Notes under the pieces: generated by a model
The model's input: only the letters and a program-made list of their open reading frames with translations
Database searches by the model: none
What the model was told of the DNA's origin: nothing
In this document: positions 1-41,613 of the stretch, one piece after another
Layout: each line of letters starts with the position of its first letter
Position numbering within the stretch: position 1 is the first letter of the stretch
DNA from: Pseudomonadota bacterium
Lineage (GTDB): Bacteria > Pseudomonadota > Gammaproteobacteria > UBA12402
Direction: 5' to 3'
Length of the DNA: 55,940 nt
Assembly (NCBI GenBank): GCA_039190005.1
Contig: JBCCYM010000005.1
Location: 1 to 55,940 of the forward strand
Made by a program: the position numbers and the translations under genes

Positions 1-175
1 ATGCCTTAAAGACGTTCAAAGGGCGGGCCCTGAATTCATCGAAGGGCATAGCAGGTTTTTCGAAAGCAGGTTTGGGCTTCGACAAGCTCAGCCATCTATG
101 CCTTAAAGACGTTCAAAGGACGGTCCCTGAGCCTGCTTGCCCTGAGCCTGTCGAAGGGTCGAAGAGTCGAAGGGT
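1..175. repeat. Composite cluster of REP-like family-A units (CCCTGAGCYTGTCGAAGGG), including a nested copy; may continue left of the window
   Basis: Units at 28-46 (degenerate), 75-93 (GGCT/AGCC variant) and 125-174 (nested). 22-bp direct repeat at 1-22 and 98-119. Homologous to 16349-16491. Confidence 0.9.
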
Positions 176-180
176 GAGGT

Positions 181-1995
181 TTAACCATGAAATTGTTGAT
201 AGATTTTACCAGCAAGCTTTTTATCAATACCGGGCACTCGCGCCAAATCTTCAATACTAGCCTCTTTAACCCCTTGAATACCGGCAAAGAATTGCAGTAA
301 TTTCTGCCGTCGTTTTTCACCCACACCCGGCACTAATTCCAATACGGAGTGTTTTCGCTTATTGTCACGTTGATGGCGATGGCCGGAAATCGCGAACCGA
401 TGCGCTTCATCGCGTGCCTGCAACAATAGTCGAATACCGATATTCTCCGGCATAAAATCCAGCGGGCGTGTCTTTCCCGCTAAAAAAATCTGCTCAAAAC
501 CAACCTTACGGGTTTTGCCCTTGGCAATGCCTAATAAGGCGATATCATCAATCTGTAATTCTTCCAAGGCGTTCATTGCCTGTTTTAACTGGTTGCGCCC
601 ACCATCAATAATGACCACATCCGGCAGCACCGCTTCTTGCAGTCTAAGTTTTTTATAATGACGCAACACCGCTTGATAGATGGCGGCATAATCATCTCCT
701 GGGGTAATACCTTGAATATTAAAACGCCGATAATCTTTTTTAATCGGCCCGGCTGCGCCAAAGACCACACAGGAGGCGACAGTCTGTTCGCCTTGGGTAT
801 GACTAATATCAAAACATTCAATCCGTTGTGGTGTTTGGGTTAAACCCAGTATATCTTGAATAGCTTCCAATTGCTTGAGCAATGTCGCGCGCGATAATAA
901 ACGGGTATTTAAACTGTCTTTGGCGTTTAATGTCGCCATTTGAATTAAATTCAATTTAGCACCACGCCGCGGACAACTTATTTTTATCATCTTACCGGTT
1001 TTATGCTGTATGCTTTGAGCCAGCAAAGCGGCATCATCTAACGCCTGGGAAACTAGAATTTCCTTGGGCAATTGATGGTCATTATCCAAATAATAATGCG
1101 ATAAAAAGTGAGGCAATATATCTTGCGTTTCACTATTTTTTGGCAACTGGGGGAAAAAATTCTGTTTGCCGATAATATGACCGGCACGAATTAACAACAA
1201 TTGCACACAGCTTATGTTGGCCTTACTGACTAACGCGATTACATCGACATCACCAACATCCGTTGCCACATGTTGACTTGCTTGCAGTTTACGCAAATCA
1301 GCAATTTGATCGCGGTATTTCATTGCCAGTTCATAATGTTGCTGATCAGAGGCCTGCCGCATTTTTTTTAATAAGTCATTTATAATTTGTTCATTCTTAC
1401 CGGTTAATAACAACTGCGCGTGGTCGACATCTTTTTGATAATCCGCAGCGGCAATATAATTGACACAGGGCGCGGAACAGCGTTTAATCTGATATTGCAA
1501 ACAAGGACGCTGACGGTTTTTGAAAAATGTGTCACGACATTGACGTATCTTAAAAATTTTCTGTATCAGCTGTAAGGTCTGATGGACCGCGGTGGTTGAC
1601 GGATAAGGTCCAAAAAATTTTCCTTTTTTACCCTGGGTACTGCCACGATAAAAACTGAAACGCGGAAATTGATGCTGGCTGGATAAATAAATATAGGGAT
1701 AACTTTTATCGTCTCGAAATAAAATATTATAGCGCGGATGAAATTTTTTAATTAGATGGCTTTCAAGAATTAACGCTTCGTACTCTGTTCGGGTAATAAT
1801 GACTTTTATCGCATGAATTTGTTTAACCAGTGCTTGTGTTTTAGTGCTGGCATGGGTTTTAACAAAATAGCTGGAAACGCGGTTTTTTAAATTTTTAGCT
1901 TTACCGACATAGAGTATTTTGTCGTGTTTATCAAACATTTGATAAACACCAGGCTTAGTGCTTAATGTTTTGAGAAACGCTTTATAATCAAACAT
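181..1995 (-). CDS. uvrC: Excinuclease ABC subunit C
   Basis: GIY-YIG N-terminus (PGVYQM..LYVGKAKNLKNRVSSYF), Cys cluster, RIECFDISH, DGG motif, C-terminal HhH. Confidence 0.98.
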   Translation of the reverse strand: MFDYKAFLKTLSTKPGVYQMFDKHDKILYVGKAKNLKNRVSSYFVKTHASTKTQALVKQIHAIKVIITRTEYEALILESHLIKKFHPRYNILFRDDKSYPYIYLSSQHQFPRFSFYRGSTQGKKGKFFGPYPSTTAVHQTLQLIQKIFKIRQCRDTFFKNRQRPCLQYQIKRCSAPCVNYIAAADYQKDVDHAQLLLTGKNEQIINDLLKKMRQASDQQHYELAMKYRDQIADLRKLQASQHVATDVGDVDVIALVSKANISCVQLLLIRAGHIIGKQNFFPQLPKNSETQDILPHFLSHYYLDNDHQLPKEILVSQALDDAALLAQSIQHKTGKMIKISCPRRGAKLNLIQMATLNAKDSLNTRLLSRATLLKQLEAIQDILGLTQTPQRIECFDISHTQGEQTVASCVVFGAAGPIKKDYRRFNIQGITPGDDYAAIYQAVLRHYKKLRLQEAVLPDVVIIDGGRNQLKQAMNALEELQIDDIALLGIAKGKTRKVGFEQIFLAGKTRPLDFMPENIGIRLLLQARDEAHRFAISGHRHQRDNKRKHSVLELVPGVGEKRRQKLLQFFAGIQGVKEASIEDLARVPGIDKKLAGKIYQQFHG

Positions 1996-2767
1996 TGTTT
2001 ATTTGAGAAAACAAACGATAAAAATTCTCTGTACTTTGACGGGCAATGGTATCAACAGATTCTTGACGCAATTCAGCAAGACAAGCTGCGACATGTGGCA
2101 CATAAGCTGGTTGATTGGCTTTACCACGCATGGGTACTGGCGCTAAAAAAGGTGAATCCGTTTCAATCAGAAAACGATCGGCGGGAATTTTTTTAGCGAC
2201 TTCTTTAAGTTCCCGCGCGTTTTTAAAGGTCACTATACCGGAAAAAGAAATATAAAATCCCAAAGCCATCGCCTGTTCCGCCATCGCCAAGGTTTCAGTA
2301 AAACAGTGCATCACACCACCAATCGCGGCGGCGTTTTCTTCTTTCATGATGGCAATGGTATCTTCTCGCGCGTCACGGGTATGAATGATCAAGGGTTTTT
2401 TTAAGGATTTGGCAACAGCGATATGGTCACGAAAACGTTGTTGTTGCCATTTTAAATCATCGCCCTGAATATGAAAATAATCCAGACCGGTTTCGCCAAT
2501 GGCGACCACTTCCGGTCTTTCAGCGTCGGCAAGCAATACGTCAACGCTTGGTTCCGCTGTCATTTTTTCGGTGGGATGCACACCAAAAGAGCAGGAAACA
2601 TCGGGGAAACGCATGGCACAGTCCAACACTTGTGGAAAGGTATCCAGCGATGTCGACACACAGAGCATGTGTTCGACCTCAGCGTCACGCGCCGCTTGAA
2701 CATAGGCGTCAACACCTTGTTCGCTTGTATCCAACATATTCAAGTGACAATGGCTATCAACAAACAT
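1988..2767 (-). CDS. TatD/YcfH family metal-dependent hydrolase (DNase)
   Basis: DSHCH, GETGLDY, IIHTR, GVMHCF and ETDSPFLAP motifs. Confidence 0.95.
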   Translation of the reverse strand: MFVDSHCHLNMLDTSEQGVDAYVQAARDAEVEHMLCVSTSLDTFPQVLDCAMRFPDVSCSFGVHPTEKMTAEPSVDVLLADAERPEVVAIGETGLDYFHIQGDDLKWQQQRFRDHIAVAKSLKKPLIIHTRDAREDTIAIMKEENAAAIGGVMHCFTETLAMAEQAMALGFYISFSGIVTFKNARELKEVAKKIPADRFLIETDSPFLAPVPMRGKANQPAYVPHVAACLAELRQESVDTIARQSTENFYRLFSQINNV

Positions 2768-2802
2768 AAGTCACCTTTTCACCTATCTTAAATTACTTTT
2801 TC

Positions 2803-3252
2803 TCAGTGCTTAACCGGCGATTCAATATCCAGTATTTCCACTTCAAAAATCAGATCCTGTCCACACAAAGGATGATTAAAATCAACTTTTACCCGATCTT
2901 CCTGAATTTCACGCACAATACCAGGCAATTCCTGACCGTTCGGTTGCGTAAACATAAAAATGGATCCAATCTCAACATTATTCTTTTTGGAAAACTTATC
3001 ACGCTCGATATAATGAATATTCGCTTCATTGGGTTGACCAAAACTTTCTTCCGGCGGCAGCATGAACACATTTTTTTCACCCACACTTAACCCCAATAAA
3101 TGCTTCTCAAATCCTTTGCTGAAAGAACCATCCCCCACCATCATCTCAATGGGAATATTATCATTCTTAGTATCCTGAGCGATCGATTTATCTTTAAGCA
3201 TAATCTTAACATGCATTTTTAGACGACTACCCACCTCAACATTTTTTTGCAT
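2803..3252 (-). CDS. fkpB: FKBP-type peptidyl-prolyl isomerase (SlpA/FkpB)
   Basis: VDFNHPLCG motif; position after lspA; ATG at 3252 preferred to the track start. Confidence 0.9.
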   Translation of the reverse strand: MQKNVEVGSRLKMHVKIMLKDKSIAQDTKNDNIPIEMMVGDGSFSKGFEKHLLGLSVGEKNVFMLPPEESFGQPNEANIHYIERDKFSKKNNVEIGSIFMFTQPNGQELPGIVREIQEDRVKVDFNHPLCGQDLIFEVEILDIESPVKH

Positions 3253-6539: not shown

Positions 6540-6634
6540 GCCCGATTACTTATTCAGTTTGAATGAAAAAACATTATAAGGTACATTAGTAACTGAAACA
6601 AGCTTTACATAGCGAGTTCTACGATGAAATAGGT

Positions 6635-6846
6635 ATGCTTAAAATTACAGTTAGCAGCAAGATGAGAGCGCAACCTTTTATGCCTTCGACCCTTCGACGA
6701 GCTCAGGGACCGCCCTTCGATAAGCTCAGGGACACCCACACATAAAGATGGCTGAGCTTGTCGAAGCCAAACAACCCCTTTCAACCCTTCGACAAGCTCA
6801 GGAACCGCCCTTCGACAGGCTCAGGGACCGCTGTGGTTTTAAGGAT
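6635..6846. repeat. Cluster of five family-A units bounded by imperfect 16-bp terminal inverted repeats
   Basis: Units at 6690, 6713, 6750 (inverted GGCT/AGCC variant), 6785 and 6808. Ends ATGCTTAAAATTACAG and CTGTGGTTTTAAGGAT are 13/16 complementary. Confidence 0.85.
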
Positions 6847-6851
6847 TAAAA

Positions 6852-6880
6852 TTGCCACTGCTCAGAAAACATGCTAAATT
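6852..6880 (+). promoter_or_regulatory. Putative sigma70 promoter for the DUF378/phosphatase genes
   Basis: TTGCCA-17 bp-TAAATT with TG extension. Confidence 0.4.
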
Positions 6881-6907
6881 AACACAAAAATTTAATAGGA
6901 ATATAAC

Positions 6908-7102
6908 ATGTCCAAAATATTACTTCGTATTATTCAAGTGATTGCTTTGCTTGGTGGTCTCAATTTTATATTAATTGGCATCGCACGATTTGATATTGCC
7001 GGCTATTTTTTCGGCATCATGACAACGCCCACGTATATTGCTTATGTCGTTTTTGGCGTATGTATTTTGATATCATGTTTTATCAGTTTTAAAAAGAAAT
7101 AA
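6908..7102 (+). CDS. DUF378-like small membrane protein
   Basis: Two hydrophobic helices; LLGGLNF.LIGI..FD pattern; AGGA SD. Confidence 0.75.
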   Translation: MSKILLRIIQVIALLGGLNFILIGIARFDIAGYFFGIMTTPTYIAYVVFGVCILISCFISFKKK

Positions 7103-7107
7103 TTAAC

Positions 7108-7929
7108 ATGCGAGTCAAATTCATTCTGACATTAGTCTTGTCGCTACTCTTTTTTTCCGTTGCCACCGCCGCTTCAAATCACTTTGCTAATGTTGAATTA
7201 ATCGAAAAGAATCATCAAACCGGCAATTTATTGTTCCGAGGTCCTATTCCTATGATTGGCAAATCATTCGCTGGCGAAGCGCTACTGGCCAAAATGAAAA
7301 CACTGGATGCTGATTTTCCGGAAAATTATGTCTTTGTTGATATTGATTTAATTGGCGATGACCAAAATGAAGTCGCCATGGAAAAAAGTTCGCTGGCAAC
7401 CACCTTTAAACAAAGCACATTTTTGTCCTGGCCTGTCTTTGGTGTGCGTACTGTGCCGACAAATCCAATCTTTTCTAAATTCTACAAAAGACAAGACAAC
7501 ATTTCCTTACTTGCCGAACCACCACAACCCGGCAATCCCAGTTATGATATTCATCTAGCACAACTGTTAACCACTATGATGCAAACGCGGTATAACACAC
7601 CCCATGTCTTCTATATTCATTGTGCCGGCGGTTGCGACCGCGCCGGCCAACTTTCAACAATGTATATGATGCTAAAACAACAAACTACCGCGCAACTGCG
7701 AAATGAAATTTTCCAATATTTAAGTCACAATGATATACAAGGCTGCCGAGGTCGCATGCCCAATAATAGCAGTTTAGACGCGATATTATGGGGCTGTTAT
7801 TATATCGCCAATCGAGACCAACCCTCAGCGTCCGCCTGGCAACAATATAATAACTACTACGCCCATTGCAGTTGCATTTACAACTTTATCCGCGGGCATG
7901 ACCTGGAAAGTAAACTGAAAAATGAGTGA
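7108..7929 (+). CDS. Secreted protein-tyrosine/dual-specificity phosphatase-like protein
   Basis: Signal peptide; HCAGGCDR matches CX5R; LLFRG motif. Confidence 0.75.
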   Translation: MRVKFILTLVLSLLFFSVATAASNHFANVELIEKNHQTGNLLFRGPIPMIGKSFAGEALLAKMKTLDADFPENYVFVDIDLIGDDQNEVAMEKSSLATTFKQSTFLSWPVFGVRTVPTNPIFSKFYKRQDNISLLAEPPQPGNPSYDIHLAQLLTTMMQTRYNTPHVFYIHCAGGCDRAGQLSTMYMMLKQQTTAQLRNEIFQYLSHNDIQGCRGRMPNNSSLDAILWGCYYIANRDQPSASAWQQYNNYYAHCSCIYNFIRGHDLESKLKNE

Positions 7930-7972
7930 GTTTTTCTCACAATTCAAAAACAATATCCAAATGGGTGATGGT

Positions 7973-7992
7973 CCCTGAGCCTGTCGAAAGGG
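7973..7992. repeat. Solo family-A unit with a 1-nt insertion
   Basis: CCCTGAGCCTGTCGAAAGGG. Confidence 0.85.
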
Positions 7993-8085
7993 CGCGCGAA
8001 CGACGAGCGCAGAAGACAGTCCGCTTTAGATCCCACATAAACCTAAAAACCGTAATTTTAATCACACCCACGTCTTATAAAACTT

Positions 8086-8114
8086 TTGACTGTAATTCAT
8101 ACTGATGGTATAAT
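8086..8114 (+). promoter_or_regulatory. Near-consensus sigma70 promoter of the GH85 gene
   Basis: TTGACT-17 bp-TATAAT with TGn extension, 34 bp before the ATG. Confidence 0.7.
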
Positions 8115-8148
8115 TATTATCAAATAGTAAAAGTAATAATTAAAAAAT

Positions 8149-10092
8149 ATGAATAAAAAGTTTAATGTGTGTATGTTGTTCGTGCTGTTACTATTACTGA
8201 AAAGCACATCATATGCCACAGTCAATTCACTAGCAAACCCTCATTTTTGTCTGCCTGACGCGAATGGAAATCCACCAGTTGGTTGTACCGGCATGTTATT
8301 TACCAAAAATAGCATCTCTGATTTCGCGCAATTCTATAAAAACTTGCCTGTACTACATTCCGGCTGGAACAAACAGCCTAGAGTCGTTCCTTTTTTATTG
8401 TTTTCGACCAGCCAAACCCCGCTAAATATGGTGACGAAACAAACCGCGGAAACACTAAAATACAACACTTACAATCCAGTAGTCTACAATTGGCATAATA
8501 TTAGCAAACTGGTTTATTTTGGCGGCTCTGAAAACGAAGGGCAAATCTTGATTCCCACACCAGGATGGATCAAGGCAGCACATCAAAATGGATCAGCTAT
8601 ATTTGCAACTATCTTTTTTTCGCCTAATAGCTATGGTGGAAGTGATGAAACAAATCAACTCGATTATATGCTAACATTGAATAAATCGGGTCATTACCCC
8701 ATCGCTGATTTGTTAATTTCTGCTGCTAGAAAATATCATATTGATGGTTACTTTATTAATGAAGAAGCATTCTATCTCAATGATAAATCAAGCATAAATC
8801 TATCCGCATTTGTGAGATATATAGAGAAAACCTCAAAAGAGGAAGGTTATCCGATAAAAATCGAATGGTATTTTACAGCGCTAAAGAGCGAAACGCCTTT
8901 TTACGAAAATAACAATGGTCTTAATGCTTTTGCCGCCAATAGTGTATTTATTGAAAATTGGAGCTTAGATAGTAATACTATAAATAAGGCTATATCTATG
9001 GGTTATCCTGAAGCAAATATTGAATATGGCACCCAGAGAACTATTACAACATTTACTCAAAATATCTGCGTCGCCTGTAATCTTCACTTCCTGCCAAATA
9101 AGAACATCTCTGCCGCGGTATTTGCTTTTTCAGATATACTTTCTCCTAATCATCTTAATGAAAATGACAAACCAAGTCAGCAATACAAAAACGCAATGCG
9201 CTTTTGGCGAATTACCCCCTCATATCTTAAAAACTCAAATAATCTGGACTATGGCACAAACAATTTTTTTGCAACTGATTTTAATGCCGGCATTGGCAGA
9301 GATTATTATATTCAAGGCGTTCGACAACATTATGGCTTTTGGAGCGCGATTGGTCTACAAGATATTCTTCCGATTAATTTTCTCAGCGATACGCCCGGAC
9401 TAAAAATTTCACTTGATTTCAATGACGCTTATAATGGTGGTTCGTCATTACGTATTATAAAGCGACAAATCATCCCAATTTCTAAACCACATCATATCAC
9501 ATTATACGACCACTTAAATGTAAGTATAAAAAATAATCCAGTCATGTATGTCACCTATAAACAACTCATTGGCGATACACCATTCAAAATTTGTGTGAAC
9601 TATACAGATGGCGATAACAAAGGTGATAATTGCATAAGTCTGACTTCAGAAGAAAAACACCGCTGGACAAGATCCTCTATTAACCTGACACCGTTAAATC
9701 ATCAAGGACGTTATCAGTCTATTGAACTTGTTGTTCCCAAATCTTCTATAAAAGAAAAAACTGTAATTGGACAACTATATCTGGGAAGTTTAGAAAACTA
9801 TGTGCGTCAACCCAGCTCTGTTCAAGAATTACAGTTAAAACAATCGATTCATGATGACGATAACAATGGTATGCACTATATTATTTCCTGGAAAGGAAAC
9901 CAACACGATAAAAATTACAAGGTTTATGTTAACGACCAGTTCTATGGCGCTACTTTTCAAAATATTGAAGATGTTATGGTATCGCCTCCTGAGCAAGATC
10001 TAAATATATGTGTTGCCCCTCAAGGTTATAGTGGGATTATGGGCACTAAGAACTGTATTAATGTATCTCCTTCTCAACTGCGGCCTTCATGA
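8149..10092 (+). CDS. Secreted endo-beta-N-acetylglucosaminidase (GH85-like)
   Basis: Signal peptide; LVYFGGS.NEG.I.IP.PGWIKAAHQNG; DGYFINEE (catalytic N-x-E); DAYNGGSSL. Confidence 0.85.
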   Translation: MNKKFNVCMLFVLLLLLKSTSYATVNSLANPHFCLPDANGNPPVGCTGMLFTKNSISDFAQFYKNLPVLHSGWNKQPRVVPFLLFSTSQTPLNMVTKQTAETLKYNTYNPVVYNWHNISKLVYFGGSENEGQILIPTPGWIKAAHQNGSAIFATIFFSPNSYGGSDETNQLDYMLTLNKSGHYPIADLLISAARKYHIDGYFINEEAFYLNDKSSINLSAFVRYIEKTSKEEGYPIKIEWYFTALKSETPFYENNNGLNAFAANSVFIENWSLDSNTINKAISMGYPEANIEYGTQRTITTFTQNICVACNLHFLPNKNISAAVFAFSDILSPNHLNENDKPSQQYKNAMRFWRITPSYLKNSNNLDYGTNNFFATDFNAGIGRDYYIQGVRQHYGFWSAIGLQDILPINFLSDTPGLKISLDFNDAYNGGSSLRIIKRQIIPISKPHHITLYDHLNVSIKNNPVMYVTYKQLIGDTPFKICVNYTDGDNKGDNCISLTSEEKHRWTRSSINLTPLNHQGRYQSIELVVPKSSIKEKTVIGQLYLGSLENYVRQPSSVQELQLKQSIHDDDNNGMHYIISWKGNQHDKNYKVYVNDQFYGATFQNIEDVMVSPPEQDLNICVAPQGYSGIMGTKNCINVSPSQLRPS

Positions 10093-10151
10093 GAGTATAC
10101 TCATCAAGCTGGTGACAAAATGAACCGGCAAATTTACAAAAGTAAATTTAG

Positions 10152-10448
10152 TTAACTACTCTTAGAAACAAGTTTAACAACTAATCTTTTATTAATTGCT
10201 TCGGCATAACGTTGCAATGTAGCCAATGTAGGAGAATATTTCTGTTTTCCTCCTCCTGTCTCAAGTCGCCTGACAACAGAGGTACTAGTACCCATGATCT
10301 CAGCTACTTCTGCCTGACTTTTATGAGAAGCTTGTCGCGCCTTAATTAAGGTACGTAATAACATAAATTCACTATCTAGCTCATCATAATGTTTTTTTAC
10401 TTTCGGCTGTTTCAGCGCTTTTGCTTTTATTTTATCATGTGTACTCAT
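10152..10448 (-). CDS. XRE/HTH antitoxin-like regulator (HigA-like), orphan
   Basis: SQAEVAEIMGTSTSVVRRLE and PTLATLQRYA; GAGGT SD; no toxin gene upstream. Confidence 0.8.
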   Translation of the reverse strand: MSTHDKIKAKALKQPKVKKHYDELDSEFMLLRTLIKARQASHKSQAEVAEIMGTSTSVVRRLETGGGKQKYSPTLATLQRYAEAINKRLVVKLVSKSS

Positions 10449-10491
10449 AATTGTTTACCTCATATAAACATGATGTGGTAATAGCTATAAT

Positions 10492-11418
10492 TCACAAGCT
10501 GGCGCCCGCAAAAAACCGCCGAGCCGCCTGATTATCTATTTCCATCTGTTGTTTTAACGCGTCCAGATTATCAAAGCTATCATCACCACGCAGTTTATGA
10601 CGAAAATCAACCTGTAGGCGACAACCATAGATGTCTTGATCAAAATCAAGAATAAATACTTCAAGAAGGTAGTATTTATCGCGTAGCGTTGCTTGTCGAC
10701 TGATATAAGCGATACCGTTTAAACGCTGTTTCCCGACCCCACTTACATTAACAGCAAAAATACCTTCCAATGGCGGCTGTCGATGAAACAAGCGAATATT
10801 AGCGGTTGGGAAACCCAGTTTACGCCCCAGTTTTTTACCATGGATGACTCGGCCGGATATCGAATAATGACGTCCTAACAATGTTTTAACGTGATTAAAA
10901 TCACCTCGCTGTAAGCTGAGACGCAAATCAGTACTGCTCACCCGCTGATTATTCTGAGCGACCACGGGCAGTATTGATAATGCCTGTGGAAACATTTGTC
11001 GCAAATAATCGATGTCGCCTTGCTGCTTAAAGCCGAAACGAAAATCTTCCCCCAGTATTAATCCTTTCACCTTGAGTCTTTTTTTCAAATACCGCTCAAC
11101 AAAGGCTTCTTTGCTTAATTGAGCAAATGATTGATCAAATCGCACCAAAAAGAGTTTATCAACACCATATTGGCGTAAAATCGTTATTTTCTCACCCAAG
11201 CTTGTCAATCTTAGCGGCAGTTTTTGCTGACTAAAAAACTCACGCGGCAATGGTTCAAATGTCATGACTGCCGCCGGCACGGCTAATTGTCGCGCCTTAT
11301 TGACCAAGGCCTTGATAAGTGCTTGATGCCCCCTATGTAGCCCATCAAAATTACCAATAGCCAGCACACAGCCATTTGTGTCGCTGCGTATTTTATCATT
11401 GTCTCGAATCAGTCGCAT
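10492..11418 (-). CDS. ribF: Bifunctional riboflavin kinase/FAD synthetase
   Basis: IGNFDGLHRGH, VSST and GRKLGFPTAN motifs. Confidence 0.96.
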   Translation of the reverse strand: MRLIRDNDKIRSDTNGCVLAIGNFDGLHRGHQALIKALVNKARQLAVPAAVMTFEPLPREFFSQQKLPLRLTSLGEKITILRQYGVDKLFLVRFDQSFAQLSKEAFVERYLKKRLKVKGLILGEDFRFGFKQQGDIDYLRQMFPQALSILPVVAQNNQRVSSTDLRLSLQRGDFNHVKTLLGRHYSISGRVIHGKKLGRKLGFPTANIRLFHRQPPLEGIFAVNVSGVGKQRLNGIAYISRQATLRDKYYLLEVFILDFDQDIYGCRLQVDFRHKLRGDDSFDNLDALKQQMEIDNQAARRFFAGASL

Positions 11419-11429
11419 TGTTTGGTATT

Positions 11430-11526
11430 AACCTAAAAACTGCACCAGATCAATCTGAGATCCCTGAGCTTGTCGAAGGGACCACCCTTCGACGGGCTCA
11501 GGGACCACTGCGGTTTTGTAGGATTA
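11430..11526. repeat. Inverted doublet of family-A units inside imperfect terminal inverted repeats
   Basis: Units at 11462-11480 and 11485-11503 (inverted); ends AACCTAAAAACTGCA and TGCGGTTTTGTAGGATT. Confidence 0.85.
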
Positions 11527-11673
11527 AAATCTCCCCTGTAATTCATTCAAAGCAAAATAATACCGATTGTAACGAAATATAACAATTATAATTTTTCTTT
11601 GAATTAAAGATTTCATTCGCTTATAATTATGCCTTAATTCACTTAATCCATATTTAATGAGGAAATACATACA

Positions 11674-12279
11674 ATGAAAAAATTATCCGTAATTGCTATA
11701 CTTGCCGCTGGCGTATTACTTGCCGGTTGTAACATGCAATCATCGTCTTCAGGGGGTAGCTCAAACTTTGGTTTGGTTGATATTCAGAAAGTTGCCACGC
11801 AATCACCTGAAATGAAGCAAATTCAAACCAAGATGCAAGCACAAATGCAACCTATGGAAGCAAAACTTCGTGCCGCTTCACAAGGCATGCAAAAGCTTGA
11901 TCAAGAAATTAAAACAGCAACTGGCGATAAAAAATCCGCTCTGGAAAAACAAAAAACAGCCGCGCAAGCGCAATTTCAGAAAGATTTAGCTAATTTCCAA
12001 GATATGCAAAAATCTGTACAAGAAAAAGTACAAAAAGTTGTGGATGACGCTTTAGCTGTGGTCGCTAAGAAAGATAATCTTGCTGCCATCTTTGTTAAAC
12101 AAGCTGTACTTCAACATGGCGCTTCTTTTAAAGATGTGACTTCTGATGTGTTGGCACAGCTCAAAGCAACAGCAGGTTCATCAACAAGTACTAGCAGTTC
12201 AAGTTCAACGAGCCCAAGCACAACTGCAACAAGTAGCCAATCAAGCAGCGGTAGCAGCACAACTACAAGCAGCAAATAA
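11674..12279 (+). CDS. OmpH/Skp-like lipoprotein with a Ser/Thr-rich tail
   Basis: Lipobox LLAGC; GLVDIQKV start, coiled coil and DVTSDVL end typical of Skp; GAGG SD. Confidence 0.75.
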   Translation: MKKLSVIAILAAGVLLAGCNMQSSSSGGSSNFGLVDIQKVATQSPEMKQIQTKMQAQMQPMEAKLRAASQGMQKLDQEIKTATGDKKSALEKQKTAAQAQFQKDLANFQDMQKSVQEKVQKVVDDALAVVAKKDNLAAIFVKQAVLQHGASFKDVTSDVLAQLKATAGSSTSTSSSSSTSPSTTATSSQSSSGSSTTTSSK

Positions 12280-12287
12280 CTATTCTT

Positions 12288-12325
12288 TCATCCCGTCTGT
12301 GAACGCAGATGGGATGATTTCTTTT
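12288..12325 (+). terminator. Rho-independent terminator
   Basis: TCATCCCGTCTG/CAGATGGGATGA stem followed by TTTCTTTT. Confidence 0.75.
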
Positions 12326-12356
12326 CAAATACAAATTAACTTATCAACGAAATAGC

Positions 12357-12890
12357 ATGTCTACTGATTTAATACAACAATTGCAGGCTATTGACGCTAT
12401 CAAATATGGTGATTTTACCTTAAAAAGTGGTCTTAAATCTTCTATCTATGTCGATCTGCGCCCTATTGTCTCTTATCCTAAAATTTTGCAGAAAATTGCT
12501 GATTTAATGTGGGAAAAGATTGCTGATTTAAAACCAGAACTAATCTGTGGTGTTCCCTATACCGCGCTACCGATTGCCACAGCCATATCATTGAAACATC
12601 AAATCCCTATGGTAATGCGCCGTAAGGAAGCGAAAAATTACGGCACCAAAAAAATGATTGAAGGCGTGTTTAAAGCGAATGAGCCATGCGTGATTATTGA
12701 AGATGTGATCACCACTGCCAGCAGTGTGATTGAAACAATTGATGTGCTCGATACGGTTAATCTCAAGGTAAAGGATATTGTGGTCTTAGTTGATCGCGAG
12801 CAAGGCGGCTATGACAATCTTGCTAATAAAGGCTACCGTGTTCACCCAGTCTTTACCCTATCTGAACTTAAGGCAGCGCAACCGAAATGA
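12357..12890 (+). CDS. pyrE: Orotate phosphoribosyltransferase
   Basis: GDFTLKSG, YVDLR, RKEAKNYG and IIEDVITT. Confidence 0.95.
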   Translation: MSTDLIQQLQAIDAIKYGDFTLKSGLKSSIYVDLRPIVSYPKILQKIADLMWEKIADLKPELICGVPYTALPIATAISLKHQIPMVMRRKEAKNYGTKKMIEGVFKANEPCVIIEDVITTASSVIETIDVLDTVNLKVKDIVVLVDREQGGYDNLANKGYRVHPVFTLSELKAAQPK

Positions 12891-13657
12891 AGCATCTTCC
12901 TTTCAGTCAACGCGCCGAACTTGCTGAAAACACCACTGCTAAAAAGCTCTTTCAAATGATTGCCGAAAAAAAAAGCAATCTGGCCTTATCCGCTGATTTA
13001 ACCACCTCCAGCGAACTTTTTAAACTTATCGAGCAAGTTGGTGAACATATTGCTGTGCTTAAAACCCACATTGATATTCTCACTGATTTCTCACCAGCAG
13101 TCATTGAACGGCTAATACAATATACCAAACAGTACCAAGTTTTAATCTTTGAAGATCGGAAATTTGCCGATATAGGCAATACTGTCAGCCATCAATATCA
13201 ACACGGTATTTATACGATCAGTAACTGGGCGGATATTATCAACGCCCATATTCTACCTGGTGAAGGCATTATTGATGGTCTTAAAAAAATTGGACAACCA
13301 TTGCAACGCGGATTACTGCTGATAGCGCAGATGAGTTCAAGCAATAATTTCTTCAGCGATGATTATGTACAAGCTAATATTGAATTAGCCAAAAAACATG
13401 CTGATTTTGTTATCGGCTTTATTTGCCAACAGCAATTAATGGCTGATCCGACTTATATTCACATGACACCGGGTGTCAAACTGGAACCGGGAAAAGACGC
13501 GTTAGGACAAGCTTATCTCACGCCAGAATATGTGATTGGTGAACAATACAGTGATATGATAATTGTCGGACGTGGCATTATTCATGACAAACAACCGGCA
13601 AAAATGGCGCAACAATACCGCGAACGTGCTTGGCAGGCCTATCAGCAAACTTTGTGA
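12887..13657 (+). CDS. pyrF: Orotidine-5'-phosphate decarboxylase (eukaryote/URA3-like type)
   Basis: LKTHIDIL, FEDRKFADIGNTV, MTPGV and IIVGRGI; ATGA overlap with pyrE. Confidence 0.95.
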   Translation: MKHLPFSQRAELAENTTAKKLFQMIAEKKSNLALSADLTTSSELFKLIEQVGEHIAVLKTHIDILTDFSPAVIERLIQYTKQYQVLIFEDRKFADIGNTVSHQYQHGIYTISNWADIINAHILPGEGIIDGLKKIGQPLQRGLLLIAQMSSSNNFFSDDYVQANIELAKKHADFVIGFICQQQLMADPTYIHMTPGVKLEPGKDALGQAYLTPEYVIGEQYSDMIIVGRGIIHDKQPAKMAQQYRERAWQAYQQTL

Positions 13658-13735
13658 TTTTCTCTGAATATTTTTATTAGCCAAAAGTAATAGAAATTAT
13701 TTGAAGTAGTTACATTTTGTAGGCATAATTATATT

Positions 13736-13942
13736 ATAAAGCTTACTTGGCATAATGCTAAAAATCGCTCAAATATAAACAAGCATGGTTTAGATTTTCA
13801 TGATGCCGCTTTTGTATTTGATGGTCAAACAGTGACATTTGAAGATGACCGAGCAGATTATGGTGAAAAACGTATTATTTCAATGAAGAAAGCCAATGAA
13901 AGAGAGCAAAAAATCTATCAAAAGCGACTTAAAACGGATTGA
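13736..13942 (+). pseudogene. brnT: BrnT-family toxin pseudogene
   Basis: Not in the ORF track. Reads IKLTWHNAKNRSNINKHGLDF...DDRADYGEKRIISMKKANEREQKIY; ATA in place of the start codon and an in-frame internal deletion. Confidence 0.85.
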
Positions 13943-14159
13943 CCGTTTGAAAGATCAAGCCATTGATTATTCCGACTCATCTGAATTGGATGATAGCTTT
14001 TTTAAAAAAGCAACTGTAGAACTACCTGTGCCAAAAGATAGCGTGACGCTTAGAATTGATCATCGAGTTCTCGAATGGTTCAAGTCTCAAGGCAAAAGCT
14101 ATCAGACACGGATAAATGCCGTTTTAAAATCTTACTATAAAGCACATCATACCGATTAG
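13896..14159 (+). CDS. brnA: BrnA-family antitoxin
   Basis: VTLRID..VLEWFK..G.SYQTRINAVL; overlaps the brnT 3' end. Confidence 0.9.
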   Translation: MKESKKSIKSDLKRIDRLKDQAIDYSDSSELDDSFFKKATVELPVPKDSVTLRIDHRVLEWFKSQGKSYQTRINAVLKSYYKAHHTD

Positions 14160-14203
14160 ACGCGCTTGCCAGAAAGGATAGGATGCTCGCACAGTGGATC
14201 CAA

Positions 14204-14241
14204 CCCTTCGACAGGCTCAGGGCAAGCAGGCTCAGGGACCG
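14204..14241. repeat. Nested family-A element (reverse orientation, outer half lost)
   Basis: CCCTTCGACAGGCTCAGGG-CAAG-CAGGCTCAGGG-ACCG. Confidence 0.9.
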
Positions 14242-14248
14242 CTGAGAT

Positions 14249-15109
14249 TTAACCAAACCGTTTGGTATAACGATGACAATACGGCTGTTGTTGTTTTTTG
14301 TCGTAATAGTGTTGATGATATGCTTCAGCTGACCAAAATATGCTTACTGGTAACAATTGGGTCGCGATGGTATAATTTTTTTCTTCAAGCTGTTTAATTA
14401 ATTCGGCGGCTATCGCTTTTTGCTCATCATCAAAATAAAAAATCGCGCTCAAATACTGGGTGCCAAGATCCGGTCCTTGGCCATCTTGCTGAGTGGGATC
14501 ATGAATTTCAAAAAAATAACGGGTTAATGCCGGGTAATCCATTCGCTTAGGATCATACAGTACGCGTATTGCTTCAAAATGACCAGTTTTCCCGCAACAG
14601 ACCTGTTTATAATTCGGATTGGATACCGCGCCACCGGTATAACCAACTTCTGTTTTTAAAACGCCATCAAGCTGCTCAAAATAGTATTCCATACCCCAGA
14701 AACATCCACCAGCATAAATGGCTTCTGTGGTATCCATTACGTCAATATCGGCTATTAATTCAATTGCTAAACCATTGACACAATAACGCTGATTTTTTTC
14801 AGTTAATTTTTCACCATAAAACACATGTCCCAAATGCGCGCCACAACGGTGACAAACAATTTCAACGCGCTCACCATCATTATCCGGCAGATTATCGACA
14901 TGATCAGCAATGGCTTGATCAAAACTCGGCCAACCACAATGTGAAACAAATTGATCGGCCCCACGAAAAAGTGCCAAACCACAACGACGACATAAATAAG
15001 TCCCCTGCGCTTGATGGTCATGGTAGCAACTTGATCCAGGATATTCAGTATGCTTATGTTTTACAATATTGACAACTTCAGGTGTTAAACTCGCAAGTTT
15101 ATCCAGCAT
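14249..15109 (-). CDS. msrAB: Bifunctional methionine sulfoxide reductase (MsrB-MsrA fusion)
   Basis: SHCGWPSF, HLGHVF and RYCVN (MsrB), then GGCFWG and AEAYHQ (MsrA). Confidence 0.95.
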   Translation of the reverse strand: MLDKLASLTPEVVNIVKHKHTEYPGSSCYHDHQAQGTYLCRRCGLALFRGADQFVSHCGWPSFDQAIADHVDNLPDNDGERVEIVCHRCGAHLGHVFYGEKLTEKNQRYCVNGLAIELIADIDVMDTTEAIYAGGCFWGMEYYFEQLDGVLKTEVGYTGGAVSNPNYKQVCCGKTGHFEAIRVLYDPKRMDYPALTRYFFEIHDPTQQDGQGPDLGTQYLSAIFYFDDEQKAIAAELIKQLEEKNYTIATQLLPVSIFWSAEAYHQHYYDKKQQQPYCHRYTKRFG

Positions 15110-15118
15110 AATACATTC

Positions 15119-15901
15119 CTATTCCTGGCGATGCACCATCGCACCCGCTTGTGTTTGCGCAGTTGGCATGACAATGATCTCCTCAATATTCACATGCACT
15201 GGTTGCTGCATACAGAATAGCACTGAATTGGCAATATCTTCAGCAACAAGTGGCTTAAAACCACGATAGGTTTCATCAACACGCGCCTGATCACCTTTAA
15301 AACGCACATTGCTGAATTCAGTATTCACCATCCCTGGACTGACTAGATTTATTCGGATATTGCTATACGCTAATAATTCTTGGCGTAACGCTCTGGTAAT
15401 TGCTCGTACCGCGAATTTAGTCGCGCAATAGACTGAACCACCAATATAGGTTATATGTCCGGAAATAGAACCAATATTAATAATCTGCCCCTGACCACGT
15501 TGCTTCATGCCCGGTAATATCTGGCGAGTCAAATACAATAGACCTTTCACATTGGTATCAATCATTTGCTCCCAATCGGCAATATCCGCGACATCAAGCG
15601 CGTCCAGTCCTTTAGATAATCCGGCATTATTAACTAACACATCAATCGCTTGCCAGCTATCTGGTAAATTTTCAAAGCTGTGCTGTACTGCTTGTTGTTT
15701 TTGGACATCAAGTACCATAATATGAATCTCAGTTGCCGCGTTTTTCTGTCGACATTTTTCAGCAACTTCTTTCAGGCGTGCTTCACGCCGCCCCACTAAC
15801 AATAATTTAGCACCATGCTCGGCACATAAAATGGCACAAGACTCACCAATACCGCTACTGGCACCGGTAATACATATAATTTTATTTTGAAGATTTGACA
15901 T
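15119..15901 (-). CDS. SDR oxidoreductase (YdfG-like)
   Basis: TGASSGIG, NNAG and YCATK. Confidence 0.92.
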   Translation of the reverse strand: MSNLQNKIICITGASSGIGESCAILCAEHGAKLLLVGRREARLKEVAEKCRQKNAATEIHIMVLDVQKQQAVQHSFENLPDSWQAIDVLVNNAGLSKGLDALDVADIADWEQMIDTNVKGLLYLTRQILPGMKQRGQGQIINIGSISGHITYIGGSVYCATKFAVRAITRALRQELLAYSNIRINLVSPGMVNTEFSNVRFKGDQARVDETYRGFKPLVAEDIANSVLFCMQQPVHVNIEEIIVMPTAQTQAGAMVHRQE

Positions 15902-16322
15902 TGTTAATTACACCTCCGATAAATGCAACGCGTTGTTGTAATTGCTTCAGTAAAAACTGAGCGTCTTTGAAAAAATCAGGAATCACAGCAAAAATTTCCT
16001 CGGCTTTCTTCGAACTATAAGCATGGATTGTATTATTTCTTGCCACACGATAGTTTTTCCATACCAACCAATCCGAGAGCAATAAATTTCTTTTACTACC
16101 GACACGAATAAGATCAGAAAAAGAAAGCGCAGCCATGTTGATGTTTGCCACCGCTATCATTGCTAAATAGCGTCTGAGTAGTTTCCAGGATAGCTCGTAA
16201 TTATATTTAAAGCGCTGAATACAGGCATCACGTATAAAATCATCCGGGCGCTGGTTATATTCGCTTAAAGCTTGCTCAAGTGAAAACAAAGCTTTTTCTA
16301 AAGAAGATAAATCTAGTTTCAT
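15882..16322 (-). CDS. HEPN / nucleotidyltransferase substrate-binding protein (HI0074-like), orphan and possibly decaying
   Basis: RDACIQRF..YELSWK; RNNTIH = RX4H; GAGGT SD; no neighbouring MNT gene. Confidence 0.8.
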   Translation of the reverse strand: MKLDLSSLEKALFSLEQALSEYNQRPDDFIRDACIQRFKYNYELSWKLLRRYLAMIAVANINMAALSFSDLIRVGSKRNLLLSDWLVWKNYRVARNNTIHAYSSKKAEEIFAVIPDFFKDAQFLLKQLQQRVAFIGGVINNVKSSK

Positions 16323-16348
16323 ATTACCTCACTATTTAATCGCATGCT

Positions 16349-16513
16349 CCTTGAACTCGTCAAAAAGCATAACAAGCCTTCCCAAAGCATTCTTTGGCTT
16401 CGACAAGCTCAGCCATCTATCTATATATCGAGCCTGTCAAAGGACGGTCCCTGAGCCTGCTTGCCCTGAGCCTGTCGAAGGGTCGAAGGGTGGTCCCTGA
16501 GCTTGTCGAAGGG
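16349..16513. repeat. Composite family-A cluster homologous to 28-175
   Basis: Degenerate unit at 16349, GGCT variant at 16396-16414, nested unit at 16449-16490, extra unit at 16495-16513. Confidence 0.9.
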
Positions 16514-16520
16514 TATAATA

Positions 16521-18620
<2,100 letters not shown>

Positions 18621-32072: not shown

Positions 32073-32100
32073 AATTTTAATTCATTTATCGCTAATTCTC

Positions 32101-32227
32101 CGTCATTCCCGCGTCCCTTCGACAAGCTCAGGGTACAATCCGGAGAAAAAACTACAGGCACAAACATGTTGCTCCTCGATTTTATCCTCAGCTTGCCGAA
32201 GGACCCTGCCTGCGCGTGGGAATGACG
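32101..32227. repeat. Family-B doublet with a family-A unit in each arm (hybrid element)
   Basis: CGTCATTCCCGCG and GGGAATGACG ends; spacer homologous to that of 29419-29503; A units at 32115-32133 and 32185-32203. Confidence 0.88.
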
Positions 32228-32239
32228 AGGCATTTTTCA

Positions 32240-38435: not shown

Positions 38436-38723
38436 TCAACCATTGATAACTGCTTCAAAAGTTCGAGAATATTTATTCGCTTCAAATTGAACTACTTTGT
38501 AGTCCGCGATTTCTTGGCAATAAAATGGATCTTCTTTGATGATCCGCATCATATTGTCTTTATCAGTCATCGCTAAAATAATCCCTCCATCACGAGGATA
38601 CTTAGGACCCGAAGCAATAAAAATACCCTGACTATAATAGTTATCCAGGAATTTTCGGTGTTCTTCTAAAAACTTGTTTACTTCATCTAGAGACTTTTTA
38701 TAGGTTAGTTCGGCTATAATCAT
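38436..38723 (-). CDS. YciI family protein
   Basis: EHRKFL, ASGPK.PRDGG and EDPF. Confidence 0.88.
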   Translation of the reverse strand: MIIAELTYKKSLDEVNKFLEEHRKFLDNYYSQGIFIASGPKYPRDGGIILAMTDKDNMMRIIKEDPFYCQEIADYKVVQFEANKYSRTFEAVING

Positions 38724-38782
38724 AGTTATACACATCCTATCTTATTTATTATAAATTATAATGTTAGCACGTATCAATCAAC

Positions 38783-39973: not shown

Positions 39974-40102
39974 TATTTAAAAAAATTGTCTCTCAAAAAA
40001 TTTAATTGCCGAGAGTATAGTATATTAAAAAAGATTTGCTTGTATAATTAGAAACAATGATAGTGAATTTTAGTATGTTCTATATTGATGATAAGCTCTA
40101 TT

Positions 40103-41047
40103 ATGAAATTAGATATAAAAAATATTAGCATAGCAATTTTAGGCACAGGCGCGGTGGGAAGCTATGTCGGCGCTTGTTTACAGCAATCGGGTTGTGATAT
40201 TCATTTTCTCGCGAGAAGCACATATAAGGCGATAAAATCAGATGGCATTACGGTTCACGAAGCTGATGGCAAAATTTTTAATATTAAAACAGTTAAAGTG
40301 TATAACAATACCGATACCCTACCAAAAGCTGATGTTGTTATTTTAACCACCAGGACGGCACAAAATAAAAGTCTTTTCGCGTCACTCGTGATCAATAATC
40401 TTCTCAAAACCAACGGTATCGTTATAAGTTTACAAAACGGCATCGATTTTGAGCGAGCGATTATCGCCGCTATTTCACCACATGAACTACTAAGCGGCAC
40501 TTCCTGGATTAAAGTAACACAATTAACCCCCAGTGTTGTCCGCCATGATTTTGGCAACAGGATACTTTTAGGCACATACCATAATGAACGGCTTAATGTC
40601 CCTGTTAGTCAATCCGGTAAAAAAGTAAAAGCTTTATTAGAGCACGCCGGTTTCGCGGTTGAATTAATTGAAAACATTCAAGCCGTACAGTGGACAAAAT
40701 TAGCATTGAACCTCCCTCTGTTCGCGTTTATGGCATTGTATAAAAAAAGCGCTTCTGAATTATTAAACAATGAAACCTGGAATCAACAGATCACCACGTT
40801 TCGTCAGGAGTTGATAAACACCGCCCAAGCCTGTAGCTGTCCAGTTGATCACATCTTTATTGATAAAACACTGGCAGATTTAAAAAAGATGTCTATTCCT
40901 TCACAAAAAATTATTGATGCCGCCGCCAATCGTGTACGCGTTGAAATCGAAGCAAATTTTGGCAATCTACTTAGACTACTGGAAAAGAAAAAAATTACCG
41001 CGTTACTATTAAGGAACTATTATGAAAAACTTAGCAATTTCTCATAA
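40103..41047 (+). CDS. Ketopantoate reductase-like oxidoreductase, divergent
   Basis: GTGAVG, LQNG and WTKL..N present; C-terminal motif altered; start uncertain (40085/40088/40103). Confidence 0.75.
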   Translation: MKLDIKNISIAILGTGAVGSYVGACLQQSGCDIHFLARSTYKAIKSDGITVHEADGKIFNIKTVKVYNNTDTLPKADVVILTTRTAQNKSLFASLVINNLLKTNGIVISLQNGIDFERAIIAAISPHELLSGTSWIKVTQLTPSVVRHDFGNRILLGTYHNERLNVPVSQSGKKVKALLEHAGFAVELIENIQAVQWTKLALNLPLFAFMALYKKSASELLNNETWNQQITTFRQELINTAQACSCPVDHIFIDKTLADLKKMSIPSQKIIDAAANRVRVEIEANFGNLLRLLEKKKITALLLRNYYEKLSNFS

Positions 41048-41071
41048 AGAGGTTGCTTCATATTACATTAC

Positions 41072-41422
41072 TTATCTTCTGCTTTTTGATAATTTTTTGT
41101 TACGTCTTTTCTTTTCAATGCTGTCATTAATGTATTTACATAACAAATTAGTATAAAAACGAATAACAGAGGTGAAAAACAGGGCAAGAATAGACGATAT
41201 ATACATATGTATACTGGAAAGCGCCGCGACTATAAGTGGTCTTCTTTCAAGAAGTCTATGATGCGAAATAGCCTGTCCTTTTTCAGCAGAAATGCTGGTT
41301 GTAGGAATAGAATCGTTGATAGCATCTTGCCGAGAAATCACATCTATTAAGCTGCTTACTGACCAAACGAAGACGGCTACGCATACACACAGGATTATAA
41401 TAAATCCGATAATTCTAGCCAT
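41072..41422 (-). CDS. Hypothetical membrane protein
   Basis: AGGAG SD; two hydrophobic segments; basic tail. Confidence 0.55.
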   Translation of the reverse strand: MARIIGFIIILCVCVAVFVWSVSSLIDVISRQDAINDSIPTTSISAEKGQAISHHRLLERRPLIVAALSSIHMYISSILALFFTSVIRFYTNLLCKYINDSIEKKRRNKKLSKSRR

Positions 41423-41468
41423 TAGAATATTCTCCTATTAAAACTTAACTGTACAAAAAACAGAGACG

Positions 41469-41613
41469 CCCTTCGACAAGCTCAGGGACCGCCTTCGACA
41501 AGCTCAGGGGCCACTTTTGGACAGGTTCAGGGACCACGTTACGACCAACTCAGAGATCATCCTTAAGTGAATTCAGGGAGATAGCATTTCACACTCGCGA
41601 AAGCAGGTATCCA
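41469..41613. repeat. Five tandem family-A units (22-23 bp period) plus a degenerate family-B unit
   Basis: Units at 41469, 41491, 41514, 41537 and 41560; B-like TCACACTCGCGAAAGCAGGTATCCA at 41589-41613. Confidence 0.85.

Follow-up and report, generated by a model that had tools for sequence, protein, structure and literature searches.

A 23-nucleotide hairpin repeat linked across phyla with the gene of a small GIY-YIG nuclease

The intergenic regions of a 55,940-nucleotide (nt) stretch of gammaproteobacterial DNA (positions 1 to 55,940 of contig JBCCYM010000005.1 in assembly GCA_039190005.1, lineage UBA12402; referred to as the window) contain many copies of a 19-nt palindrome, CCCTGAGCYTGTCGAAGGG, and raise the question of what kind of element this repeat is and which enzyme, if any, acts on it. 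A first-pass annotation of the window had suggested that the hairpin serves as the single-strand substrate of an enzyme, an idea that would fit all of the findings reported below. We consider it probable (roughly 65%) that the 19-mer is the core of a 23-nt hairpin unit of single-stranded DNA that is partnered with an Ssn-like GIY-YIG nuclease. The family is best filed as an Ssn-type nuclease/hairpin-repeat partnership with a distinct and very widespread hairpin architecture. The hairpins and the nuclease gene are linked across phyla in both position and orientation. The copy numbers, the intergenic location, the covariation of the stem, the lack of a RAYT match, and the 23-nt quantum of insertion or repetition are likewise direct observations.

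The genome to which the window belongs as contig C5 (handle G000) measures 1.81 Mb, is assembled into 103 contigs with a G+C content of 40.8%, and is 98.35% complete. The 19-mer has 14 matches in the window at no more than three mismatches, a number never reached in 100 dinucleotide shuffles (mean, 0.01). With up to five mismatches, 20 full-length copies were recovered (30 mononucleotide shuffles gave 1.4 on average and never more than 4), and all 20 lie at the eight loci collected in Table 1 and outside our crude open reading frame (ORF) calls. Partial units (125-139, 159-174, 14223-14237, 16449-16463, 16483-16490, and 41537-41578) bring the window total to about 25, in agreement with the roughly 25 intergenic copies at eight loci that had been annotated before. 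The stem variants named by the first-pass annotation were also placed correctly (GGCT..AGCC at 75, 6750, and 16396 and TCCT..AGGA at 32185) and, as it had noted, neither a GTAG nor a CGTC tag stands beside the unit, the usual 5′ flank being GGT, mostly in the form of CGGT or TGGT. The genome as a whole holds 181 exact 19-mers and 376 within three mismatches, and the 11-nt core GAGCYTGTCGA is kept at 493 sites with at most one mismatch. Defining a unit as this core within one mismatch plus at least three of four complementary outer bases, we found 421 units grouped in 213 clusters; 368 are intergenic, 5 partly so, and 48 fall within crude ORFs (at least 100 amino acids [aa]; these cover 86.7% of the genome). 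The 13-mer TGAGCYTGTCGAA is present in 337 exact copies here and in 0 or 1 copies in 13 genomes of the same family, and the expansion is therefore lineage specific.

Units are most frequently spaced 23 nt apart in direct orientation (25 cases); a convergent spacing of 55 nt ranks next, ahead of direct spacings of 31 and 46 nt. This gives a repeating unit of 23 nt, in which CGGT or TGGT (YGGT) precedes the 19-mer hairpin. About 420 to 490 gene-less units are found in the genome, as solo copies, 23-nt tandem arrays, nested forms, inverted doublets, and mosaic modules. The frequent nested form reads CCCTGAGCCTG-CTTG-(19-mer)-TCGAAGGG (19 + 23 nt), and the 8-nt TCGAAGGG tails are themselves repeated. 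The GGCT..AGCC form stands nearly always inside a longer module, which also forms tandem repeats with a period of roughly 97 bp. Many arrays are bounded by a conserved 24-nt leader, atTAAaCCTaAAAACCgCAGTGgT (for instance, at window positions 6827-6852 and 11504-11530). The leader abuts the 5′ side of 28 units and precedes 12 units by 15 nt and 4 by 23 nt; some elements are leader-unit/unit-leader doublets. This repertoire resembles that of REP/BIME elements or of non-autonomous copies of a small mobile element. The units are oriented without preference for the direction of the neighbouring genes (41/38 where these are on the plus strand, 53/53 where they are on the minus strand) or, overall, for the GC-skew strand (161 versus 160), which fits an element of the DNA level. 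The GGCT subfamily is split 43 versus 21 by GC-skew strand, its copies lying in tandem modules and not being independent; a replication-strand bias of the units was rejected on the overall counts.

Units are located no more than 300 bp from an end in 22 of the 103 contigs, and the contig of the window starts inside a repeat module. Among public sequencing runs, one DNA run, possibly the source of this DNA, and no RNA run was listed as containing it. The contigs of this run that cover positions 6600-16550 are broken at three of five repeat clusters and bridge those at 7973 and 11462-11503. These breaks, together with the units at contig ends, indicate that the repeats fragment the assembly. The joints in the public-run contigs are cross-matches of other copies, and no usable presence/absence variants of units were obtained from them over 6600-16550.

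A search of the 98.35% complete genome for RAYT/Y1 transposases (PF01797) gave no match, and an identity of the family with RAYT-driven REPINs was rejected on this ground. The GIY-YIG domain (PF01541) has three matches, one in a 604-aa ORF of the window (181-1995), which we take from its length alone to be a putative UvrC, and two in small genes outside the window. The 604-aa ORF is the sole GIY-YIG match of the window, in which the first-pass annotation had rightly seen no candidate enzyme gene. The small gene on contig C83 (G000:C83:5522-5800; 92 aa) is the only intact gene copy of its nuclease. It is positioned just downstream of tRNA-Gly(CCC) and a leader, and lies inside an array with units or modules of the studied family at both sides, on a contig that ends in units. 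The gene on contig C8 encodes a 97-aa SsnA-like protein and is preceded, in the region G000:C8:37759-38268, by hairpins fitting the published NTS consensus CGTCATTCCCGCGaaGGCGGGAATCCAG. Pfam GIY-YIG is the sole family match of both proteins, neither of which matched the PADLOC defence models; an NCBIfam search with the C83 protein returned nothing. The C83 protein is about equally far from its SsnA-like paralog (36% identity) and from Escherichia coli YhbQ (33%). Eleven ORFs of the genome are bracketed by units within 120 nt, including nine that are ordinary by Pfam, a 91-aa ORF without a family, and the C83 nuclease. The proposal to look for an enzyme gene flanked by inverted copies thus met with no RAYT and with nothing in the window, and yet a candidate exists in the 92-aa GIY-YIG protein of C83, which is the most likely candidate partner enzyme of the studied hairpin.

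The C83 protein has 3029 relatives at E ≤1e-3, the best 119 of which are 64 to 76% identical to it, with the named ones belonging to different phyla. A scan of one genome per species yielded 594 relatives, the best 80 loci of which were examined; at least 11 named phyla are represented. Across these best 80 of 594 loci, the core of the studied genome (GAGCYTGTCGA) has a density of 1.5/kb within 250 bp of the nuclease gene and of 0 to 0.18/kb beyond, and at 18 loci it is found no farther than 300 bp from the gene. Other loci carry the same hairpin with different tips, namely, TGAGGCTCTCGAA (30), TGAGCGTAGTCGAA (17), TGAGGCACTCGAA (13), and others, and some have the form TGAGTA-(inner hairpin)-GTATCGAA. 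The general hairpin with five of five complementary flank bases was counted 141 times in 61 kb near the genes versus 38 times in 599 kb farther away, and TGAG...YCGAA hairpins are about 30-fold enriched within 250 bp of the genes of the relatives. A paired hairpin is found within 400 bp of the gene at 64 of the 80 loci. The orientation was counted at 92 loci with gene limits set by tblastn. The nearest hairpin upstream shares the strand of the gene at 52 of 65 loci, and the nearest one downstream is found on the other strand at 63 of 76. The resulting +/- arrangement is found at 37 of the 56 loci that have both hairpins, and the C83 gene conforms to it. The studied unit belongs to a class of the form 5′-(YGGT)-stem-T-GAG-(4-5 nt or inner hairpin)-YCGA-A-stem′-3′. 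The nuclease tree mixes phyla, and core classes, taken together, cluster on it (28 changes versus 43.1 ± 2.1 in shuffles, 0 of 300 as low). The CYTG class of the studied genome is unclustered on this tree, and we therefore read the hairpin tip as free and TGAG/YCGAA as the shared feature; a co-evolution of core and nuclease is not claimed.

The first-pass annotation had further claimed that the outer stem covaries and that the hairpin is under selection as such, with its asymmetric core kept. At sites with intact inner pairs, the outer stem in this genome is CC..GG in 231 cases, GG..CC in 78, GG..GG in 1, and CC..CC in none, so that a genome-wide count of the outer pairs also finds covariation, and further forms are TC..GG (29), TC..GA (22), and CC..GA (14). 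The sole mixed GG..GG unit is located directly after the stop codon of the C83 nuclease gene. The CC..GG and GG..CC forms represent a double compensatory change between two amplified subfamilies and, because the GGCT form was amplified within the module of about 97 bp, the within-genome covariation amounts to about one event. The cross-genome covariation is stronger and decisive. Every TGAG-N4-YCGAA within 400 bp of related nuclease genes was picked by the core alone, and the resulting 98 distinct 27-mers from 36 loci were aligned with two window rows (100 rows). T-GAG and CGA-A are invariant in the 100 rows as a result of the row choice, and the evidence is in the arms. Pairing was observed in 85.3% of cells versus 67.8% in shuffles (0 of 500 reached the observed value), with 144 double-sided changes versus 44. 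The inner helix of six pairs is 96% paired, the four variable arm pairs use GC, CG, AU, and UA, and pairing is 26 to 50% in slid controls, in which the partner was moved by 1 to 3 columns. The conservation of the hairpin beyond its sequence is thereby borne out, and the covariation of the outer stem holds on the cross-genome rows, its within-genome part being reduced to two amplified subfamilies. Conservation of the G at position 2 of the 5′ flank is 90% or more, yet the column opposite it is paired in only 59 of 99 rows; YGGT accordingly behaves as a sequence tag and not solely as a stem.

A second hairpin family of the genome is of the NTS type, carries the CGTC tag, and comprises 98 hairpins with both arms detected, 81 of them with a 4-nt loop. 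Since the SsnA-like C8 gene lies behind NTS hairpins and the C83 gene among units of the studied family, two nuclease/hairpin pairs coexist in this genome, each gene beside its own repeat type. Seven of the 98 NTS hairpins contain a unit of the studied family, with an insert of 23 nt (five cases), 31 nt (one), or 46 nt (one). All seven inserts are placed between the loop and the right arm, in one orientation and with the sequence GYGGT + unit, and they reflect either a site- and orientation-specific insertion or one amplified chimera. Two NTS hairpins (G000:C32:3582 and G000:C83:823) have another 23-nt loop insert, GGCCCCTCCC[C/T]GCGAAAGCGGGG, which is itself a small hairpin and equals the studied unit in length. 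The 91-aa ORF without a family (G000:C32:11195-11473) is situated between a unit array and an NTS hairpin with a nested unit.

The closest known system is that of SsnA, as described by Chenal et al. 2025 (PMC11893778). SsnA binds the NTS hairpin only when the DNA is single stranded and makes its cut a few bases upstream; cutting is governed by the bases 5′ of the stem, and RNA, duplex DNA, and the opposite strand are left uncut. The enzyme was assigned to cd10448, and an insertion sequence (IS)-like NTS-ssnA-NTS layout was noted. The studied family shares with this system a single-domain GIY-YIG gene of about 92 to 100 aa bracketed by inverted hairpin repeats, tens to hundreds of additional oriented and mostly intergenic copies, a wide and patchy distribution, and a conserved sequence 5′ of the stem. 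In addition, the residues aligned with mutated SsnA residues (two Tyr and Glu64) are conserved in our alignment A1. The two differ in that the studied hairpin has an invariant internal T-GAG/YCGA-A and a variable tip, whereas the Ssn stem is ATTCCC..GGGAAT, in the tag (YGGT versus CGTC), and in the nuclease, the C83 protein sharing the above 36% identity with the SsnA-like paralog of its own genome. The published SRM motif, HGTCWYN(0-2)YYVSBRHN(0-5)WNVSBRGN(0-2)RNCYNB (PMC11893778), is absent from all 421 units, also when 12 nt of flank are included; it has 71 sites in this genome, 65 of which are of the NTS type.

In Supplementary Data 4 of that paper, all five checked species with the present nuclease clade are flagged cd10448, three with CDD scores above 100, and the five flagged genomes hold 4 to 13 GIY-YIG matches each, so that the flag is not attributable to this gene in particular. 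SRM enrichment in the five species is 0.43- to 1.74-fold. The flag together with a low SRM enrichment would fit a clade whose repeats are missed by the SRM motif. None of four 8-mers of these hairpins was found in 13 of the 14 supplementary files of the paper, and a literal literature search with 13- to 16-mers of the hairpins retrieved no paper on such repeats. The family has a precedent in its architecture, which follows the Ssn nuclease/hairpin-repeat pattern (PMC11893778), although the SRM motif misses all 421 units.

REP/BIME and REPIN elements (Nunvar 2010, PMC2817692; Di Nocera 2013, PMC3733652) are likewise short palindromes that occupy intergenic DNA in hundreds of copies and form mosaic clusters as well as inverted doublets. 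The studied family differs from REP/REPIN-RAYT systems in having neither a RAYT gene nor a GTAG or CGTC tag, and its associated gene encodes a GIY-YIG nuclease (hydrolytic type) rather than an HUH transposase. GTAG is absent from the end of the palindrome, where the 5′ flank consensus is GGT, and the CGTC tag that marks the NTS family and the REPs of Di Nocera 2013 (PMC3733652) is absent from the unit. Regarding MITEs, no target duplication was seen around the 23-nt units, and DDE transposases were not searched for.

The UPF0213/YhbQ proteins are similar to the C83 nuclease in being single-domain proteins of the same size, and the closest solved structures by sequence are both UPF0213 members (1zg2 BH0048, 79.4 bits; 1ywl EF2693, 61.8 bits; A1 profile). 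The chromosome of E. coli has a single yhbQ gene, whose annotation is that of a DNA damage response nuclease, and we know of no report of hairpin repeats for YhbQ. Among RNA families, Rfam at its gathering scores has no match in the window, and a full-length sub-threshold match to RF02901 (AaHKsRNA41; 27.8 bits versus a gathering score of 97) was obtained at 11452-11593. The consensus of RF02901 (Aggregatibacter small RNA 41) includes two GCUGAGCUUGCCGAAGC-type units in inverted orientation and, after them, a GGAUUAA stretch, as does this part of the window; RF02901 differs in being defined as a transcript of one species. The GGAUUAA stretch resembles the leader of the studied family. The words "repeat", "multicopy", and "palindrom" do not occur in the source paper (PMC5909427). 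Known RNA families were rejected for other parts of the family as well; nothing was found up to E = 1 in 16300-16550, and 16 loci gave only tRNA, DUF805, and the unrelated Acido-Lenti-1. The DUF805 RNA match (71.4 bits; L067:1627-1694) and the Acido-Lenti-1 match (38.6 bits, gathering score 37; L075:1734-1779) are both unrelated to the hairpin family.

The joint occurrence of repeats and nuclease was compared across a sample of 300 Gammaproteobacteria, with thresholds set after seeing the data. The 13-mer reaches at least five copies in 15 of the 300 genomes, a reversed control pattern giving at most two per strand. The nuclease (at least 79 bits with the clade profile) is present in 9 of these 15 repeat-rich genomes, including the unpublished genome G141, versus 7 of about 284 others. 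Other nuclease genomes that were inspected carry other tips, with hairpins beside 9 of 11 loci. Several observations weigh against the proposed partnership. A close nuclease is missing from 6 of the 15 repeat-rich genomes, three of which have weaker small GIY-YIG genes only and three of which (G149, 100% complete with 92 copies, G062, and G218) have no nuclease match at E 1e-8; Pfam finds only a UvrC-sized ORF in G149 and G062 and, in addition, a weak 87-aa match in G218. The Pfam GIY-YIG domain is also confined to a UvrC-sized ORF in G003, which has at least 14 matches to our covariance model R1 in a scan of 150 genomes that scored 50 candidates per genome and is a rough list only. Many nuclease-bearing genomes hold just a few hairpins beside the gene, and the gene alone therefore does not cause the expansion. 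Further, the apical core type tracks the nuclease tree loosely (11 changes for 12 rows in the CYTG class), and the covariation within the genome lies between two amplified subfamilies whose copies are not independent. Finally, the hairpin formed by one unit of this genome is weak (−3.7 kcal/mol, z −1.5, with 15 of 200 shuffles folding equally well under nearest-neighbour DNA parameters); the Flavobacterium version with a 7-bp stem reaches −9.1 kcal/mol (z −3.5), and the inverted doublet at 11458-11507 reaches −22.9 kcal/mol (z −8.2). The units of G149 have a CCGTTCG flank in place of YGGT and two compensatory stem forms (GGGC..GCCC and GCCC..GGGC). The same core with the CCGTTCG 5′ flank was observed at loci of G149 (L107-L118), often as inverted doublets, and of G003 (L119-L124), both genomes being without a small GIY-YIG gene.

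Hairpins that spread or persist alone, through replication slippage and recombination and possibly with a host function, might have been invaded by the GIY-YIG gene as a homing parasite; a gene landing in the spacer of an inverted doublet would give the hairpin-gene-hairpin pattern. Such doublets with a short spacer and without a gene are present in the window (11462-11503) and in G149, repeat-rich genomes without the nuclease exist, and many nuclease loci hold flanking hairpins only. We nevertheless regard homing as unlikely, given that it leaves unexplained the asymmetric core kept across phyla where the nuclease is absent; the nuclease tree mixes phyla and the gene always comes with class hairpins, which joint transfer fits at least equally well. 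It is quite improbable that the units are host elements of the REP/BIME type that work at the RNA or chromatin level (terminators, mRNA stabilisers, or gyrase or IHF sites), the nuclease link being incidental. Their intergenic position, their crowding in convergent relative to divergent gaps (99 units per 25.9 kb versus 74 per 54.3 kb), and the inverted unit pair in the RF02901 consensus, which implies transcription somewhere, are in keeping with host elements; the units are, however, also found in divergent gaps and in long arrays, without orientation bias relative to transcription and without an Rfam family at threshold, and an enrichment of about 30-fold beside the nuclease gene in at least 11 phyla would not be expected. 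A classical REP/REPIN family moved by a RAYT, or MITEs of an ordinary IS whose gene is lost or unassembled, would account for the high copy number, the palindromic units, and the inverted doublets, and the fragmentation of the assembly (103 contigs, 22 with units near an end) would leave room for a missing gene. This explanation is very improbable considering that PF01797 has no match at 98.35% completeness, that the GTAG tag is lacking, that hairpins of this kind are missing from the 1.5 kb around the Y1 transposase genes of G149 and G108, and that no terminal inverted repeats with target duplications were seen around a unit of only 23 nt.

By analogy with SsnA (PMC11893778), the TGAG..YCGAA strand would fold when single stranded, with the G-A/A-G steps as non-standard pairs beside the variable stem, and the nuclease would bind the invariant part and cut single-stranded DNA a few bases 5′ of it. 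More speculatively, the units would be multiplied by cutting and subsequent host repair or replication, and not by a transposase, and that the nuclease mobilises or multiplies the repeats is put forward as a hypothesis. A rather doubtful extension is that the nuclease and the 23-nt unit form a minimal transposase-free mobile system, in which a nick beside the hairpin is followed by host copying to new sites. Host replication or repair would then copy unit-length pieces in one orientation, preferably at the 3′ side of hairpin loops. If true, this would amount to a mode of DNA multiplication not described so far and would explain the near-unchanged hairpin core in the intergenic DNA of many phyla.

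The neighbourhoods of the nuclease loci have further features. The nearest large ORF is a type I restriction-modification gene in 24 of the 80 loci (L004-L083; N6_Mtase/HsdM_N, Methylase_S, EcoEI_R_C, and HSDR_N), with the cassette often between hsdM and hsdS, and three further loci adjoin a C5 methylase, McrBC, or GmrSD; restriction-modification systems are not mentioned in the Ssn paper (PMC11893778). By simple ORF extension, the GIY-YIG frame runs on for 417 to 578 codons in L012, L013, L018, L022, L024, L025, and L072, as possible fusions or read-through into downstream genes. An HMG-CoA reductase/PPIase neighbourhood is common to eight Flavobacteriaceae loci.

Table 1. Positions of the hairpin units, partial units, leaders, and associated arms in the window
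Position	Strand	Feature	Remarks
28..46	+	Diverged unit CCCTGAATTCATCGAAGGG	4 mismatches; belongs to contig-start composite module 1-174
75..93	-	GGCT..AGCC variant unit	Within larger module
125..139	+	5′ partial unit CCCTGAGCCTGCTTG	Outer half of nested (19+23 nt) form
140..158	+	Exact unit	
159..174	+	Two 8-nt 3′ half-unit tails	TCGAAGAG, TCGAAGGG
6690..6708	-	Unit	1 mismatch
6713..6731	-	Unit	1 mismatch; spaced 23 nt from unit 6690..6708
6750..6768	+	GGCT..AGCC variant unit	31.3 bits, covariance model R1
6785..6803	-	TCCT..AGGG unit	
6808..6826	-	Exact unit	Spaced 23 nt from unit 6785..6803
6827..6852	-	Conserved leader	Reverse complement of ..TTAATCCTTAAAACCACAGCGGT; array boundary at 5′ side of units
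7973..7991	+	Solo unit	1 mismatch
11462..11480	+	Exact unit	Left arm of inverted doublet
11485..11503	-	Unit	Right arm of inverted doublet; spacer 4 nt
11504..11530	-	Leader	Adjoins inverted doublet
14204..14237	-	Exact unit and adjoining partial unit	Nested form
16396..16414	-	GGCT..AGCC variant unit	In composite module 16349-16513; 32.7 bits, model R1
16449..16490	+	Nested form	Partial unit, exact unit 16464-16482, 8-nt tail
16495..16513	+	Exact unit	
32100..32230		NTS-type (CGTCATTCCCGCG..) arm pair	Arms 32100-32114 / 32204-32230
32115-32133	-	Unit	Between NTS-type arms
32185-32203	+	TCCT..AGGA unit	Between NTS-type arms; diverged, also 2 core changes
41469..41578	-	Five-unit tandem array	Period 22-23 nt; exact (41469-41487) decaying to barely recognisable

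Genomes from at least 11 phyla share this hairpin core, and no printed description of it was found in literal literature searches. Through the link with the nuclease, the Ssn concept comes to include a second hairpin architecture to which the published motif is blind, and part of the Ssn-family genes reported without SRM repeats may be accounted for in this way. It also gives a precise prediction of enzyme and substrate that is testable with oligonucleotides, and a candidate new specificity for single-strand DNA tools. For metagenome assemblies, the repeats are a frequent source of spurious short ORFs and of contig breaks. The nuclease linked to the hairpin is a conserved small protein that spreads horizontally.

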